Source: Bacteroidales bacterium
GTDB taxonomy: Bacteria; Bacteroidota; Bacteroidia; Bacteroidales; UBA3824
Reading direction: 5' to 3'
DNA: 64,000 bases
NCBI GenBank assembly: GCA_017417315.1
Contig: JAFPZK010000068.1
Coordinates: forward strand, 5,104-69,103
Position numbers and translations under genes: made by a program. The first letter of the stretch is position 1, and each line of letters starts with the position of its first letter. The notes under the pieces are model-generated. The model saw nothing but the letters and a program-made list of their open reading frames with translations. It did no database searches and was not told the origin of the DNA. This document shows, one piece after another, positions 7,993 through 58,585 of the stretch.

Positions 7993-10575
7993 ATGAAAAG
8001 ACATTTTTTAACATTAGTAGCGGTTTTGACCTTGGGACTCGGTGCTGTCAACGCCCAAAATTATCCCTATCAAAACCCGTCGCTCAGCGCAAAGGAACGC
8101 GCAACAGACCTTTGCAGCCGCCTTACTTTGGAAGAAAAGGCGCAATTAATGCTTGACGAATCACCGGCAATCGAAAGGCTCGGAATCAAAAAATTCTTTT
8201 GGTGGAGCGAGGCTTTGCACGGTGCGGCGAATATGGGCAACGTTACCGTTTTTCCCGAACCCGTCGCAATGGCTTCAAGTTTTAACCCCGACCTTTTGTA
8301 TAAGGTTTTTGACGTGGCGAGTACGGAATTTCGCGCTCAGTACAACAAACGAATGCTCAGCGGCGGCGAAGACGAAAAATTTCACAGCCTTTCGGTTTGG
8401 ACTCCTAACGTGAATATTTTCAGAGACCCGCGTTGGGGCAGGGGACAGGAGACCTACGGCGAAGACCCGTATCTGACTTCCGTTATGGGCGTTCAGGTGG
8501 TTCGCGGTCTGCAAGGACCTGAGTCGTCAAAATACAGAAAACTTTGGGCTTGTGCTAAACATTACGCCGTACATTCAGGACCGGAATATACACGTCATAC
8601 GGCAAATTTAACTGACGTTTCAGCACGCGATTTTTGGGAAACTTATATGCCGGCATTTAAAGTGTTGGTTCAAGATGCAAAAGTCCGCGAAGTGATGTGC
8701 GCTTATCAACGTCTTGACGACGAACCCTGCTGTGGAAACACCAGACTTTTGCAAAAAATTCTCCGCGATGACTGGGGCTTTAAATATGTGGTTGTTAGCG
8801 ACTGCGGTGCAGTAACTGACTTTTGGGACACGCATAAAAGTTCTTCTGATGCTGTTCATTCAGCATATAAAGGTGTAGTTTCGGGAACAGACGTTGAGTG
8901 CGGTTATAATTACGTTTATAAATCCGTCCCCGAAGCCGTTAAACGCGGTTTGCTCACCGAAGAAGAAGTTAATAAGCACGTTATCAGACTTTTAGAAGGA
9001 CGTTTTGACCTCGGCGAAATGGACTCTTCCGACGAAGTGGAATGGTCAAAAATCCCTGCTTCAAAACTTTCTTGTCAGGAACATAAAAACCTTTCTTTGG
9101 AAATGGCGCGTCAGACGATTGTCTTGTTACAAAACAATAACAACGTTTTGCCGCTGAAAAAGAACGCAGAAAAAATCGCCGTCATCGGTCCTAACGCCGA
9201 CAATACCCCGATGATGTGGGGAAATTACAACGGTATGCCAAATTCTACGGTTAACGTTTTGGACGGAATCAAGTCGAAACAAAAGAACGTCGTTTATTAT
9301 GCCGGTTGCGACCTGACTTACGACAAAGTGCTTGACAGCCGTATTGCTACCGAGTGCAGTTTTGAAGGCAAAAAAGGTTTGAAAGGTACGTTTTGGAACA
9401 ACGTGAAATCGGAAGGCGCACCCGTTACGACCGAGTTTTATACAAATCCCGTAAACGTTACGACGGCGGGAATGCACGTTTTTGCACCGAATGTTAAAAT
9501 CGCTGATTTTTCGGCAAAATATCAGACGGTTTTCTGTCCGAAAGAGGCGGGCGAATACGTGTTGAACGTTGATGGTTGCGGACATTTTGAGGTTTATGTT
9601 AACGGTGAACAAAAGCACAGAGTTCACATTTGGCGCACAACCCCGACCCACACTGTTATCAACGCAAAAGCCGGTGAAAAATTTGAAATCGAAATCCGTT
9701 ACAGTTACGTGACAACTTGGAACTCTGACATCAAAATCAATGTTGCAAAAGAATATCCGATTGATTATCAAACCATTATTAATAAATTGAAAGGCATTAA
9801 CAAAGTGATTTTTGTGGGCGGAATTTCGCCGCAATTAGAAGGCGAGGAAATGCCTGTTAATGCTGACGGTTTCAAAGGCGGCGACCGCACAAACATCGAA
9901 TTGCCGAAAGTTCAGCGCGACTTTTTGAAAGCCTTGAAAGATGCCGGCAAGACGGTGATTTTTGTTAACTGTTCGGGTTCGGCAATCGCATTAGAGCCTG
10001 AAACTAAAACTTGCGACGCGATAGTTCAAGCGTGGTACGCAGGTCAGGAAGGCGGCACGGCTATTGCTGAGGTTTTGTTCGGAGATGTTAATCCGAGCGG
10101 AAAACTGCCCGTAACGTTCTACAAAAATTCATCGCAACTTCCTGATTTTGAAGATTATTCGATGAAAGGCAGAACATACCGTTATTTCAACGACCCGCTG
10201 TTTGCTTTCGGATACGGAATGAGTTACACAAAGTTTGAAATCGGTTCAGGTAAGGTTATAAAAAACGGTGAAAATTACATTGTTAGCGTTCCTGTAAAAA
10301 ATTCGGGAAAAGTAGCCGGAACGGAAATTGTTCAGGTTTACATTAAGGATTTGCAGGACAGCGAAGGTCCGAGAATTTCTTTACGCGGTTTCAAGCGTGT
10401 AGATTTGAAACCCGGCGAGGAGAAAACGGTGGAAATAACTTTAACCCCCAAAGAGTTTGAGTTTTTTGACCCGCACATTTACGAAATGCGAATCAAACCC
10501 GGCGATTACGAAATTTACTACGGTAACTCGTCAAGGGATAAAGATTTGAAAAAGACAATGGTTACGATAAAATAA
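7993..10575 (+). CDS. glycoside hydrolase family 3 beta-glucosidase/beta-xylosidase with inserted PA14-like domain
   Basis: 860 aa with a signal peptide. GH3 blocks FFWWSEALHG, NIFRDPRWGRGQETYGEDP, KHYAVHSGPE and VVSDCGAV. A C-terminal Fn3-like region is present. Confidence 0.9.
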   Translation: MKRHFLTLVAVLTLGLGAVNAQNYPYQNPSLSAKERATDLCSRLTLEEKAQLMLDESPAIERLGIKKFFWWSEALHGAANMGNVTVFPEPVAMASSFNPDLLYKVFDVASTEFRAQYNKRMLSGGEDEKFHSLSVWTPNVNIFRDPRWGRGQETYGEDPYLTSVMGVQVVRGLQGPESSKYRKLWACAKHYAVHSGPEYTRHTANLTDVSARDFWETYMPAFKVLVQDAKVREVMCAYQRLDDEPCCGNTRLLQKILRDDWGFKYVVVSDCGAVTDFWDTHKSSSDAVHSAYKGVVSGTDVECGYNYVYKSVPEAVKRGLLTEEEVNKHVIRLLEGRFDLGEMDSSDEVEWSKIPASKLSCQEHKNLSLEMARQTIVLLQNNNNVLPLKKNAEKIAVIGPNADNTPMMWGNYNGMPNSTVNVLDGIKSKQKNVVYYAGCDLTYDKVLDSRIATECSFEGKKGLKGTFWNNVKSEGAPVTTEFYTNPVNVTTAGMHVFAPNVKIADFSAKYQTVFCPKEAGEYVLNVDGCGHFEVYVNGEQKHRVHIWRTTPTHTVINAKAGEKFEIEIRYSYVTTWNSDIKINVAKEYPIDYQTIINKLKGINKVIFVGGISPQLEGEEMPVNADGFKGGDRTNIELPKVQRDFLKALKDAGKTVIFVNCSGSAIALEPETKTCDAIVQAWYAGQEGGTAIAEVLFGDVNPSGKLPVTFYKNSSQLPDFEDYSMKGRTYRYFNDPLFAFGYGMSYTKFEIGSGKVIKNGENYIVSVPVKNSGKVAGTEIVQVYIKDLQDSEGPRISLRGFKRVDLKPGEEKTVEITLTPKEFEFFDPHIYEMRIKPGDYEIYYGNSSRDKDLKKTMVTIK

Positions 10576-10693: not shown

Positions 10694-12384
10694 ATGAAAA
10701 AGACAATTTTTATTCCTGTTATCGCCGCATTGACGATTTACGCTTGCGGCGGCGGACAGCAAAATCAAACTGCAAAAAACACTGACACAACGGTTACCGT
10801 TAATACAGACGTTGCCGCTGATACAGACGTTGCACAAAACGTCCCTACGGATTCCGTTCCCGACCGCTGAAAAAATTCGTCAAAACACTGCCGCAAAATC
10901 CTGATAAACAGGTGTATAATCAGTCAGAGGTTAACGATGAGGATTACAGCGGTAATTTTTGTTTCGGTTATCCGCTAAAAAGCGGCGGCTATCTTACTCT
11001 GTTTCAACATACTAAAATGAACGATTACGGCGGTAGTCAGACGTTAAAAGTCTATACTTTCAAGGACGGCAAATTTTACAACGCCGACAACTATTTGCCG
11101 ATTCCCGATGTTAAATTTTTATTTCTGAGCGATAAAACAAAGGGACACGAACAAGATGTGAAAGAAATTACGGCTATTTTCAACAAACGCCAACGCGATT
11201 TTATTGTTTATGCTTTTAACGACAAAAAACCTGAACTTCGCGCCAAACTTTCAGTAGAGTTCAGTGAGGCTGAACATAAAGACAGTTATAGAGAAGTAAT
11301 TGATTACAGAGGTCTTATGCAATGTTATCAATGGGACGGCGAAAAATTTGTTTTCGTTGATAAATTTGCCGAATTTATGAAAAACCTTCCCAAAAATCCC
11401 GACAAACCTAAATATCAGGAAAATGATTTTTATGGCGTTCCGGGAGATTTTACGAGCATTACCGAAGATTATTATGCTTTTCCGCTCAAAGACGGCGGTT
11501 ATATGGGAATGTTTAGTTTTTGCGGAGAATGTGAGGCTTCGATGTGGTGGGGCGACTATACGTATATTTTCAAAGACGGCACTTTAACGAAGAAAGACGG
11601 CATACTTCCCGTGCCTGATGCCGCACTTCTTCTCGACGAAGAAAAATGCAAACAGAATCCGTCAAAGGCAGCCGACATTACCAAACAATATAACGCAGAC
11701 CCGAAAGCGTATCTTCTTTACTCTATTACGGAAAGCGGCAATTTAGGAATAAGTATGACAGGCAGCGGTTGCGAACAATGGGGCGAAGACGATTTGGATT
11801 ACATGAAAAATGCCGACTATAAATGGGACGGCGAAAAATTCGTCAGCCTTGCCGTCAATGCCAATGTTGCCGCCGAAGTTGCCGCAAAAATAGACATCGA
11901 CCGCAAAGAATGGAATAAGGGTCAGAGTAACAACAATTTGATGTACACGTTTTCAAACGAATTTCGTGAAGAGCCTGCCACTGTTACCGTTTATTGTTTT
12001 CCTTTCAAAGACGGCGGACATTTTGTCGTAAAAATGTTGAGTGATGTAGGAGATTGGACATGCGACGAATACACTTACAAAGGCGGCGTTTTAAACGATA
12101 CGCAAAATGTTTTGCCGGTTTGTGCCTCGGTTGCCGATATGCTCAACCCTGACGAACTGAAAGGACACGAAAAAGATTTACAAGAACTTGAAAAATTTTA
12201 TAAAGAGAATCCGAGAAATTTTATTTGTTATTGGTTTGACGTTCAAGAACAGTCGGTTTCGTTGGAGTTTCGACCATTTGGCGGACTTGATTGGGACGAA
12301 GAAAAGATAGAAACATTTTTTCAAATGAACCGCAATCCCAGCATCAAATACAAATGGAATGGCGAAAAATTCGTAAAGGAATAA
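10694..12384 (+). pseudogene. lipoprotein with three ~160-aa WNGEKFV-type repeats; signal-peptide part out of frame with the body
   Basis: 10694-10870 encodes MKKTIFIPVIAALTIYACGGGQQ... (lipobox) and stops at TGA 10868-10870. The 490-aa body (track 10912-12384) has no signal peptide, and its frame is open upstream to 10822 (…LKKFVKTLPQNPDK matches the inter-repeat linker EKFVFVDKFAEFMKNLPKNPDK). A single 1-nt shift between 10822 and 10868 would fuse them. This could be a true frameshift or a sequencing error. Confidence 0.55.
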
Positions 12385-12531
12385 TTTTCGTTTCAGCAAA
12401 ATTCATTAACGAAAATTGCTGAAACAAGGTTTAAAAAGTGCGTTTCAGCAGTTTTCGAACATCATAAAAACACTTTGTCATATACAAAATAATGCTTATA
12501 TTTCGGGCGACAAATAAATCACTTACCAATT

Positions 12532-13162
12532 ATGAAAAAACAATTTTTTATTCTTTCCCTTTCGGCATTGACGTTGTTTTCGTGCGGGGGAAATCAGCAG
12601 AGAGAAACTACAAAAAACACGGAAAACACCAAAGCCGATTCCGTAAAAACCGTTGAAATTCCGGCAGAAAAGCCTGTCGAAAAACCCAAACCGCCTGAGC
12701 CTTATTCAGTTGACAATTTCAGCGGCAAATTCGTCGAAACGCCGGAGCGTCGGTATTTTGTTTTCCGTTCAAAAGCGGCGGACATCTTGTTGTAAGTTCA
12801 AGTTTTTTCAGCGGACCGGGCTGTGCTGCCGACTATTACTACGAACGTATATGTTGAAAAACAACGTTTTAGACACGATAAATGCGGGCTTTTTACCCGT
12901 TCCGAAATTGGAAGATTTGCTGAATCCAAACGAAAAGGCAAATTATAAAGAGCAGATTTCCGAGTTCAAAGCGATGTACGACAAAGACCCGATGAATTAT
13001 CTGCACTATAATTTTGACGTTCCTACCTCGTTGAAAGTTTCGCTTTATCCATGGGATTGTGAAGATGCTTATTGCGAAATGGACAAAGTAATGCTCAGTC
13101 TTGACAACGGCGACAAAGTTCCCGAATACACTTGGAACGGCGAAAAATTTGTCAGGAAATAA
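12532..13162 (+). pseudogene. single-repeat paralogue of the WNGEKFV lipoprotein, disrupted by two frameshifts
   Basis: 12532-12795 (lipobox LFSCGG) and 12653-13162 (ends EYTWNGEKFVRK) are in different frames. Reading through with shifts near 12765 and 12846 gives YFVF(P)FKSGGHLVV...DYYYE.YMLKNNVLD, collinear with VYCFPFKDGGHFVV...DEYTYKGGVLND of the upstream gene. Confidence 0.55.
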
Positions 13163-57661: not shown

Positions 57662-57762
57662 TTTTGTTTTGCAAATCTAACACTTTGTTTAAATAAAGGC
57701 AAAAATATTTTTTTTCAAAAGTAAAAAACTATATTTGCGCTGTTAATTTGTTAAAAAATCAA

Positions 57763-57770
57763 TACTTTTG
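57763..57770 (+). promoter_or_regulatory. -7 box TActTTTG (a second candidate TAtaTTTG lies at 57730-57737)
   Basis: Lies 22 nt upstream of ATG 57792. Confidence 0.35.
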
Positions 57771-57791
57771 CAACAAAAGATTACGATATTT

Positions 57792-58427
57792 ATGAACAAT
57801 AAAGAAGAAATACATAATCATTGCCGCAATTATTTGCCGCACATTGAAAATAAGCGTTATCAAATGATAACATTTAGGCTTTACGATTCCGTACCAAGAG
57901 AAGTTATCGAACGATGGAAACGTGAAGTTGATGATGGAGTGCGGGCTTCCAGCCCGCCTAATTTCCCTAATTTCCTAAATCCGCCTACTCAGCGGGCTGG
58001 AAGCCCACATTCCAAACTTGTTTTGATAGATAAATATGAGGATTCAGGAGCGGGGCAATGTTTTATGCGTGATGACCGCGAGGCACAAATCGTTAAAGAT
58101 ACGCTTTTTTATTATGACGGGGACAAATACAATATAATTGCATGGTGCATTATGCCAAATCATGTGCATATTTTAATTATGCTGTTAAAAGCAGTGTCTT
58201 TGTCTGAAATTATACATAGTTGGAAATCGTATTCTGCAAAACAAATTAATAAACTTCTTAACCGTAAAGGTCAGGTTTGGATGATGGAATATTTTGACCG
58301 TTTCATTCGCGATAGCGACCATTATGAAAAAGTAGTCAACTATATACACAACAATCCCGTTAAAGCCGGACTTGTAACATCACCCTCTGAATATCGTTGG
58401 TGTAGTGCATTTGAGAAACGGCATTGA
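57792..58427 (+). CDS. REP-associated tyrosine transposase (RAYT, IS200/Y1 superfamily)
   Basis: YLPHIENKRYQMITFRLYDS, HUH motif MPNHVHILI, and the catalytic-Tyr helix YIHNNPVKAGLV. ATG 57792 is preferred over TTG 57768. Confidence 0.85.
   Translation: MNNKEEIHNHCRNYLPHIENKRYQMITFRLYDSVPREVIERWKREVDDGVRASSPPNFPNFLNPPTQRAGSPHSKLVLIDKYEDSGAGQCFMRDDREAQIVKDTLFYYDGDKYNIIAWCIMPNHVHILIMLLKAVSLSEIIHSWKSYSAKQINKLLNRKGQVWMMEYFDRFIRDSDHYEKVVNYIHNNPVKAGLVTSPSEYRWCSAFEKRH
57936..58013. repeat. inverted REP doublet inside the RAYT ORF
   Basis: ggagtgcgggcttccagcccgcc (57936-57958) and its inverted partner gcgggctggaagcccacattcc (57992-58013). The doublet is 78 bp, exactly 26 codons in phase with the ORF. 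Confidence 0.85.
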
Positions 58428-58429
58428 TA

Positions 58430-58540
58430 GGAGCGCGGGCTTCCAGCCCGCTAAACATATATTAGAAAAGTTTAGCATGGAGTGCGGGCTTCCAGCCCGC
58501 CTAAAAAGTCGCTAAAAAGCAGGCTGGAAGCCTGCACTCC
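58430..58540. repeat. REP cluster downstream of RAYT (two direct copies, one inverted)
   Basis: ggagcgcgggcttccagcccgc (58430-58451), ggagtgcgggcttccagcccgcc (58479-58501) and inverted gcaggctggaagcctgcactcc (58519-58540). Each unit is itself a hairpin, gcgggct-tcc-agcccgc. Confidence 0.85.
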
Positions 58541-58585
58541 ACTATTACATTTATCACACATTATGATAATAAAAAAACACTTATT

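Follow-up and report, generated by a model that had tools for sequence, protein, structure and literature searches.

REP sequences carried in frame within a RAYT gene of gut Bacteroidales

Introduction

Can the gene of an enzyme that goes with repetitive extragenic palindromic (REP) sequences harbour such sequences within its own reading frame, and still encode a protein maintained by selection? This question is raised by a stretch of 64,000 nucleotides (nt) from a Bacteroidales bacterium (assembly GCA_017417315.1, contig JAFPZK010000068.1), hereafter called the window. Near one end, it carries a gene for a REP-associated tyrosine transposase (RAYT, also called TnpAREP). REPs follow the stop codon of this gene, and two further REP copies, forming an inverted doublet, lie within its coding sequence. 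The initial annotation saw in this doublet an insertion of exactly 78 bp by which a RAYT had been targeted by its own REPs, considered the case as unusual, and proposed it as a natural test of whether the enzyme remains active.

As argued below, the internal segment derives from REPs. The explanation that we hold to be probable is that of a REPtron, where a single TnpAREP-type HUH/Tyr single-stranded DNA endonuclease is accompanied by its cognate REPs, in a clade of gut Bacteroidales in which REPs would routinely occur in the coding sequence, tolerated in a disordered loop while the core of the enzyme remains intact. The phenomenon has been published before, and the locus adds to it another example, one with many members, at a loop of the protein other than the published one.

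Origin of the internal segment

Loci of a sister lineage (L125/L126, L130 and L128/L129) are syntenic and carry nearly identical RAYT genes, the synonymous divergence (dS) between L125 and L128 being 0.046. These genes differ essentially only in the total length of the REP units present at the insert codon (0, 63 or 156 nt). In our reading of their alignment, the indel junction shows no microhomology. The number of extragenic REPs on the 3' side of the gene also differs among these loci.

Compared locus by locus, the REP type found inside the gene is the extragenic type of the same lineage. A TTCC-loop type is found in the window, L131, L132 and L134, a GCAGGCGGCTCGCCTGC type, whose asymmetric inverted arm GCGGACGAGCCGTCCGC is likewise reproduced, in L128 and L133, and a TTCGCAGGTCTCCGCGCCTGCG type in L139. 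Concerning this asymmetry, it was observed in L128 (10151-10301, 10734-10853) and L125 (6477-6551) that the forward and inverted arms are different hairpins, GCAGGCG/CGCCTGC versus GCGGACG/CGTCCGC. Two stem positions are swapped and compensated, in intragenic as well as in extragenic doublets.

The peptides encoded by REPs in the homologues show a covariation that preserves the stem. The combinations R..P and Q..L occur 27 and 56 times, respectively, versus 2 occurrences of R..L and none of Q..P. At the DNA level, CGG...CCG gives R..P and CAG...CTG gives Q..L. Moreover, REP-coded motifs are read in one frame per orientation, with 165 occurrences (85 + 34 + 24 + 22) versus 0 in the other frames. 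The unused frames of the REP 22-mer are free of stop codons, as far as we read them. The frame used leads to a peptide rich in Gly, Ser, Ala, Pro and Gln; the unused ones would give peptides rich in Trp, Phe, Cys and Leu. The repeat period is 45 or 30 nt inside the genes, and the extragenic spacing is commonly 49 nt, spacings of 45 and 52 nt being also found.

Finally, two outgroup RAYTs, in L037 (Binatia) and L045 (Acidobacteriota), are accompanied by the very same REP. Their proteins, 39-43% identical to that of the window, have a short native loop unrelated to REPs, and their REPs are located outside the gene only. Because near-identical loci, lineage-matched REPs, covariation and REP-free outgroup loops all agree, the internal segment can be considered as a REP insertion.

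It might be imagined instead that the 26 residues of the window protein are an ancestral low-complexity linker, selected as protein, with a secondary likeness to REPs, the extragenic REPs being perhaps derived from the gene. Occupation of the site in most relatives and the use of a single reading frame would fit such a view. However, alleles devoid of insert occur at near-identical loci, the loops of the two outgroups are short and non-REP, and the same 22-mer is intergenic in many phyla, far from any RAYT. In addition, the R/P and Q/L covariation makes sense at the nucleotide level only. An origin as an ancestral linker would thus be extremely improbable. The initial annotation had envisaged an alignment with orthologues lacking the insert. 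Such orthologues do exist (P0045, P0087, P0100 and P0118). They have no REP at all at this site, so that the objection of an equivalent non-REP segment in orthologues does not apply.

The enzyme and its REPs

Assignment of the protein to the RAYT family relies on several comparisons. Its score with the NCBIfam model NF047646 (REP_Tyr_transpos) is 99.6 bits for a cut-off of 80, and its score with the IS200 model remains under the cut-off of that model. The Pfam family Y1_Tnp matches the 211-residue protein with an E-value of 2.9e-13. In a sequence-profile search of the PDB, E. coli TnpAREP (4er8_A) is the sole sequence relative (E = 7e-7). The same structure is the top match of a Foldseek search with the AlphaFold model (E = 1.4e-8; mean predicted local distance difference test, pLDDT, of 74.9), before IS200, IS608 and ISDra2 transposases. 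NHVH corresponds to residues 123-126 and YIHNNP to residues 184-189. An alignment of 50 homologues shows no variation in the HUH motif, in the tyrosine or at more than 50 other positions. The initial reading of a RAYT with NHVHILI and YIHNNPVKAGL motifs and with REPs just past its stop codon is thereby borne out by family score, fold and five REP copies.

The identical 211-residue protein occurs in the same gene neighbourhood on 18 contigs, issued from several gut-metagenome samples and assemblers. An assembly artefact, which was considered, is ruled out by this recurrence.

The five copies of the REP 23-mer, TGGAGTGCGGGCTTCCAGCCCGC, are distributed as two intragenic copies and three copies 3' of the stop codon (Table 1). 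Each is made of a G+C-rich stem of 7 bp with a 3-nt loop, preceded by a conserved 5' tag, TGGAGT (GGAG plus 1 nt, not GTAG). Eight matches were found, both strands of the near-palindromic core being counted, versus 0 expected from 100 dinucleotide shuffles. In a window of 40% G+C, the REPs are virtually the sole G+C-rich perfect hairpins. The arrangement of the 3' copies, two direct and one inverted, is that first described. The second and the third of them pair as a long hairpin resembling a REPIN (a REP doublet forming a hairpin), the fold of positions 58425-58545 having an energy of -35 kcal/mol (z = -7.4). Similarly, the intragenic doublet (57935-58014) folds as a single long hairpin (-24.1 kcal/mol, z = -6.5).

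Table 1. Coordinates in the window of the RAYT gene, its catalytic motifs and the associated REPs
Feature	Position	Strand	Basis
RAYT/TnpAREP gene, 211 residues including the in-frame REP doublet	57792-58427	+	Open reading frame list, family profiles, fold, dN/dS
Intragenic REP, forward arm; TGGAGT + GCGGGCT-TCC-AGCCCGC; coded peptide G-V-R-A-S-S-P	57935-57957	+	Motif scan
Spacer of the intragenic doublet, with a 9-nt tandem duplication (CTAATTTCC twice, 57958-57975)	57958-57991	+	Sequence
Intragenic REP, inverted arm; 2 substitutions versus consensus; coded peptide Q-R-A-G-S-P-H-S	57992-58014	-	Motif scan
HUH motif codons, H124-V125-H126, within NHVHILI	58161-58169	+	Translation; invariant in homologue alignments
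Catalytic Tyr codon, Y184 of YIHNNPVKAGL	58341-58343	+	Translation; invariant in alignments; matches Y motif of 4ER8
First 3' extragenic REP, beginning 2 nt past the stop TGA (58425-58427)	58430-58452	+	Motif scan
Second 3' extragenic REP; 28 nt identical to the intragenic forward copy (ATGGAGTGCGGGCTTCCAGCCCGCCTAA)	58478-58500	+	Sequence
Third 3' extragenic REP, inverted; compensated stem variant GCAGGC...GCCTGC	58519-58541	-	Motif scan

The segment 57936-58013, translated as GVRASSPPNFPNFLNPPTQRAGSPHS (residues 48-73), is the 78-bp doublet of the initial annotation. It is indeed present in frame, corresponds to 26 codons and is REP-derived, but the 78 nt represent the span between the outer REP ends, which is not a proven insertion boundary and which includes the 9-nt duplication of the spacer. 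At the protein level, this duplication gives NFPNF. Related contigs of runs X5 and X7 are devoid of the 9 nt (at 57968), which reveals an in-frame length polymorphism. The Logan contigs thus showed this spacer indel in relatives, and no allele without the doublet was found among them.

All three extragenic REPs are located within 115 nt 3' of the stop codon and none lies 5' of the start codon, the REPs of the 5' side being inside the open reading frame (ORF) instead. One may wonder whether the protein truly starts after the intragenic REPs. In that case, a shorter ORF would have the internal doublet on one side and the 3' cluster on the other, as in a classical REPtron, and the lack of any REP upstream of the annotated start would be accounted for. 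However, the first methionine past the insert is residue 92 and the resulting product would lose strand β1 (residues 23-30). Furthermore, conservation is high in the N-terminal 47 residues, which include β1 and have 14 invariant positions. They are in frame with the rest of the protein in over 100 length variants, and in other phyla as well. For this reason a downstream start is rejected; it can hardly be given any credit.

In the A+T-rich spacer 5' of the RAYT start (window positions 57725-57775), two matches to TAnnTTTG were noticed (TATATTTG and TACTTTTG). We take this sequence to be the Bacteroidetes-type -7 promoter motif. Such matches suggest that the RAYT gene may have a promoter of its own.

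A predicted disordered loop in a conserved enzyme

The position of the insert in the fold can be discussed by comparing structural models. The model of P0045, an orthologue without insert, has a turn of two residues between helices 36-45 and 48-63, and this turn is the exact site of the indel. In the model of the window protein, pLDDT values fall below 50 for residues 49-70, and the flanking helices comprise residues 36-51 and 72-84. From the positions of these helices and of the two-residue turn, the insert would lengthen the tip of an α-hairpin that precedes the HUH strand and is located between β1 and the core helix that follows. The segment is predicted to be a disordered surface loop between conserved blocks, as the initial annotation had anticipated.

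Selection on the gene was evaluated from 181 ungapped codons. The pairwise ratios of nonsynonymous to synonymous divergence (dN/dS) with relatives range from 0.07 to 0.19, dS being larger than 1 between insert-bearing genes. The RAYT core is under purifying selection. Judging from this conservation pattern, the enzyme most probably stays functional.

These values also bear on the idea that the insert inactivated the enzyme, the gene being a decaying pseudogene that happens to stay open. The location of the insert within the N-terminal part of the fold may be put forward in its favour, as may a relative, L134, which is a 5'-truncated pseudogene with 5 intragenic REPs. Nevertheless, the low dN/dS values, with a dS above 1 between insert-bearing genes, and the invariance of the catalytic and 50 or more other positions in 50 sequences do not point to decay. 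The recurrence of the identical protein on 18 contigs and the predicted disorder at a helix-hairpin turn also plead against inactivation, which we regard as very improbable.

Intragenic REPs across the clade

The homologue set was made of the 120 closest sequences, with 50-100% identity. REP-coded arrays occupy the insert site in at least 78 of them, and probably in about 110. Only P0045, P0087, P0100, P0113 and P0118 have no REP-like sequence there. A REP-bearing RAYT is the rule among these relatives, not a rare natural experiment, and the notion of an unusual one-off, offering a natural test, does not hold, all the more since there is a precedent (Quentin et al., 2018).

Homologues are 145-370 residues long, the full-length ones having 187-370 residues. 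This variation is confined to three regions: the insert site, the C-terminal tails, where the frame continues into the 3' REPs, and the N-terminal REP arrays that some lineages have. The linker between conserved anchors comprises 13-100 residues, with a median of 48. No length variation was found in the segment from HUH to Tyr among the 120 homologues. Insertions of at least 12 residues were also positioned, using P0045 numbering, in 150 sequences representing the wider family. Out of 37, 25 are at the hairpin tip (40-57), 2 in the β3/αC loop (110-113) and 6 in the αC/β4 loop (135-140).

The chromosomal context of the RAYT gene differs from one lineage to another. For instance, at L139 (10001-11068), a RAYT of 355 residues, P0090, is found inside a type I restriction-modification operon, between hsdM (8499-10004) and hsdS (11065-12570). 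The gene overlaps both neighbours, its start with the hsdM stop and its stop with the hsdS start. P0090 contains about 9 REPs with a 30-nt period. None is outside the ORF: they code for parts of the N-terminus, the loop and the C-terminal tail. At L138 (8372-9060), a HigB-toxin/helix-turn-helix antitoxin pair and an Endonuclease_NS gene are directly upstream of the RAYT P0075. The variable linker of this lineage is of the GSLTSSQRE type (GSLTSSQREQ...), and no DNA repeats were detected in it.

The RAYT copy of L134 (283-1080) has its five intragenic REPs in frame and shows an unrelated sequence in place of the N-terminus through the DSVP motif. The corresponding protein, P0119 (145 residues), begins right after the insert, and was considered as a possible frameshifted allele. 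This possibility was rejected, the REPs being still in frame in this 5'-truncated pseudogene.

REPs beyond the RAYT gene

In the scan of genome contigs with the 22-mer, at least 118 stretches were retrieved, those of the matches listed being mostly from other phyla. Among the matches listed (L007-L124), the 22-nt REP GGAGYGYRGGCTTCCAGCCYGC is dispersed in metagenome-assembled genomes (MAGs) of at least 10 phyla, mostly far from any RAYT. The taxa include Binatia, Verrucomicrobiota, Acidobacteriota, Planctomycetota, Proteobacteria, Armatimonadota and Obscuribacteraceae (e.g., L037:82-1130, L045:1059-1770). It may be remarked that the RAYTs found beside this REP in other phyla are 36-43% identical to the window RAYT. 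The REP is far better conserved than the enzyme, which is unusual for REPs.

Intergenic REP singles or doublets, with no RAYT nearby, occur in the Bacteroidales MAGs L088 and L090, and in the low-GC metagenome contigs L135-L137. A scan of metagenomes with an A+T-flanked 27-mer gave 3 contigs only. Hetero-doublets associating a TTCC-loop hairpin with a GCAGGCGAGCCGCCTGC hairpin are intergenic at L136:5963-6030, L136:9785-9850 and L135:329-395, on a low-GC contig and with no RAYT within 13 kb. About 60 nt of flanking sequence is conserved around each of them, so that the repeated unit exceeds the doublet.

A different picture is obtained around the Bacteroidales RAYT genes. When the REP proper to each lineage was searched for in the window and in L139, L128 and L133 (about 56 kb of flanking DNA at 4 loci, up to 4-5 mismatches), it was found only in the RAYT ORF and in about 160 nt on its 3' side. 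Likewise, a scan for G+C-rich perfect hairpins in the window, L131-L134, L125 and L128 gave none away from the RAYT gene. REP density is far below that of classical REP-rich genomes. It is consistent with the low flanking 16-mer counts of group 4 RAYTs (Bertels et al., 2017).

With these observations, it may be asked whether, in this clade, REPs hardly occur beyond the RAYT gene and the region at its 3' end. The in-frame array could then be a selected hypervariable cis element evolving together with the enzyme, for example as an autoregulatory hairpin or as a REP "seed" linked to it. We judge this combination to be rather improbable. If true, a strongly selected RAYT would be kept without a large dispersed REPIN population, which would challenge the view that RAYTs persist through genome-wide REPINs.

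Gain and loss of intragenic REPs

Taking as a basis the REPtron with REPs tolerated in a disordered loop, the following scheme is the best supported. REP or REPIN units would be acquired, duplicated and lost at two places: a turn where the structure allows extra residues, and the 3' end of the ORF. Gain and loss may proceed by RAYT-mediated single-strand cut-and-paste, by tandem duplication, or by both. Selection would then keep those variants whose length is a multiple of three, whose frame gives the Gly/Ser/Ala/Pro/Gln-rich peptide, and whose catalytic core is intact. In this scheme, the protein would be active and the added peptide would be essentially neutral.

Recurrent enzyme-mediated events are suggested by the microhomology-free indel, by the presence inside the gene of the current REP type of each lineage, and by unrelated REP families in the same loop in other phyla. 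An old founder insertion, followed by array dynamics in place, is suggested by the use of the same site and of the same frame in all lineages and by the layout of the units, forward then inverted. Hence the "self-targeting" of the gene by its own enzyme, put forward initially, is not supported as such.

Several considerations weigh against the scheme proposed above. Repeated insertion and a single old insertion with expansion, contraction and homogenisation fit the data equally well. In the remaining 63 kb or so of the 64-kb window, no other REP copy was found, even with 5 mismatches allowed. Unlike in classical REPtrons, no REP was found 5' of the gene, either in the window or in the related loci scanned. 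Among the RNA-seq runs checked for the RAYT gene, none was found to hold it. Lastly, when the window is compared with L131/L132, identity is 93-100% in the REP arms versus 80-83% in the core; about 3 third codon positions out of 15 differ in the arms according to our count, versus 35-38% in the core, a difference that looks non-significant with so few sites. Because this sample of third positions is too small, a constraint on the intragenic REPs at the nucleotide level is not claimed.

Such a constraint would be central to another explanation, in which the intragenic array is a selected cis module kept at the nucleotide level. DNA or RNA hairpins would serve to adjust RAYT expression, by means of the RAYT or of host factors such as RNases, or a REP "seed" would be kept linked to the enzyme. 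This idea is in line with the near-universality of the array in the clade, the stability of the long hairpin formed by the doublet (see above) and the compensated changes that preserve hairpin complementarity within ORFs, although the latter covariation may be inherited from extragenic donor copies. One can also invoke the L139 RAYT which, with no intergenic room between hsdM and hsdS, still has its REPs, all in the ORF. Besides, REPs are restricted to the gene and to the region just 3' of it in every Bacteroidales locus examined, and a down-regulation of RAYT expression by REP hairpins has been the subject of speculation (Di Nocera et al., 2013). On the other hand, the same clade has intact orthologues without the insert, the number of copies and the spacers are free to vary, as reflected by the range of linker lengths, and the inverted arm of the window is already in decay. 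As mentioned above, the excess of conservation at third codon positions is not significant. All in all, a selected cis module appears unlikely.

Whatever the route by which the REPs came in, a transposase-derived enzyme can hold its own substrate sequence in its coding region and remain under selection. At one loop, the clade presents dozens of naturally occurring length variants, among them alleles without any insert at near-identical loci, and so makes a convenient experimental series. This series is suited to questions on local REP cut-and-paste by RAYTs, on the regulation of RAYT expression by REP hairpins, and on the loop expansion that the HUH fold tolerates.

Comparison with known systems

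The closest precedent is subclass 2.4 of TnpAREP (group 4 of Bertels), of which in-frame REP insertions within the tnpAREP gene are a hallmark (Quentin, Siguier, Chandler and Fichant, 2018, BMC Genomics 19:475; PMC6006769). Members of this subclass display NH[IFV]H, WQ and YIxNNP motifs and belong to Cyanobacteria, Bacteroidetes and other phyla. Their inserts, of variable length and sequence, are located between β3, which carries HUH, and αC, and this peripheral extension was judged unlikely to affect activity; the median distance from HUH to Tyr is 88 residues (PMC6006769). The window protein resembles them by its NHVH and YIHNNP motifs, the latter fitting subclass 2.6 too, and by the in-frame REPs of its gene. 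However, its insert precedes the HUH motif, at the helical-hairpin turn that follows β1 and not in the β3/αC loop, its HUH-Tyr distance is 60 residues, its W motif is WM and not WQ, and it has a W-S-S-A-type C-terminal motif. Judged on motifs, and not with the hidden Markov models of the authors, the evidence on the subclass of the window protein is mixed. REP-like inserts at the β3/αC loop, as described in PMC6006769, are found in P0175 and P0197, which are about 48% identical to P0045. No paper was found in the literature on the Bacteroidales clade or on the β1-proximal insertion site.

With E. coli TnpAREP and its REPtron (PDB 4ER8; Ton-Hoang, 2012; Messing, 2012; PMC3479197), the locus shares the HUH/Tyr fold and a gene adjoining cognate REP hairpins that carry a 5' tag. 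In E. coli, however, REPs are found on both sides of the gene and never inside it, and hundreds of copies are dispersed in the genome (PMC3479197). The tag is GTAG in E. coli, versus GGAG(T) in the window, and the E. coli protein, of 165 residues, is devoid of the extra helical hairpin that hosts the window insert. The REPIN-RAYT systems (Bertels and Rainey, 2011; PMC3116915) offer another likeness, with inverted REP pairs separated by a short spacer and forming a single long hairpin, and with a RAYT under purifying selection of the housekeeping type. They differ from the present case, where doublets were seen only in or beside the RAYT gene, in the window and in the related loci scanned. Moreover, RAYTs of groups 2 and 3 are not reported with intragenic REPINs.

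The Rickettsia palindromic elements (RPEs) and the intragenic GTAG and CGTC REPs (Di Nocera et al., 2013; PMC3733652) are also short palindromes, often dimers coding for 20-30 residues, that preserve the reading frame of the functional genes in which they are inserted, presumably at positions corresponding to loops or linkers. Their host genes are unrelated to the mobilising enzyme, whereas here the REPs are hosted by the gene of that very enzyme, at a hot spot shared throughout the clade. With respect to the study of Quentin et al. (2018), the Bacteroidales loci add a different insertion loop, the strict use of a single frame, a compensatory covariation, and a polymorphism between near-identical loci.

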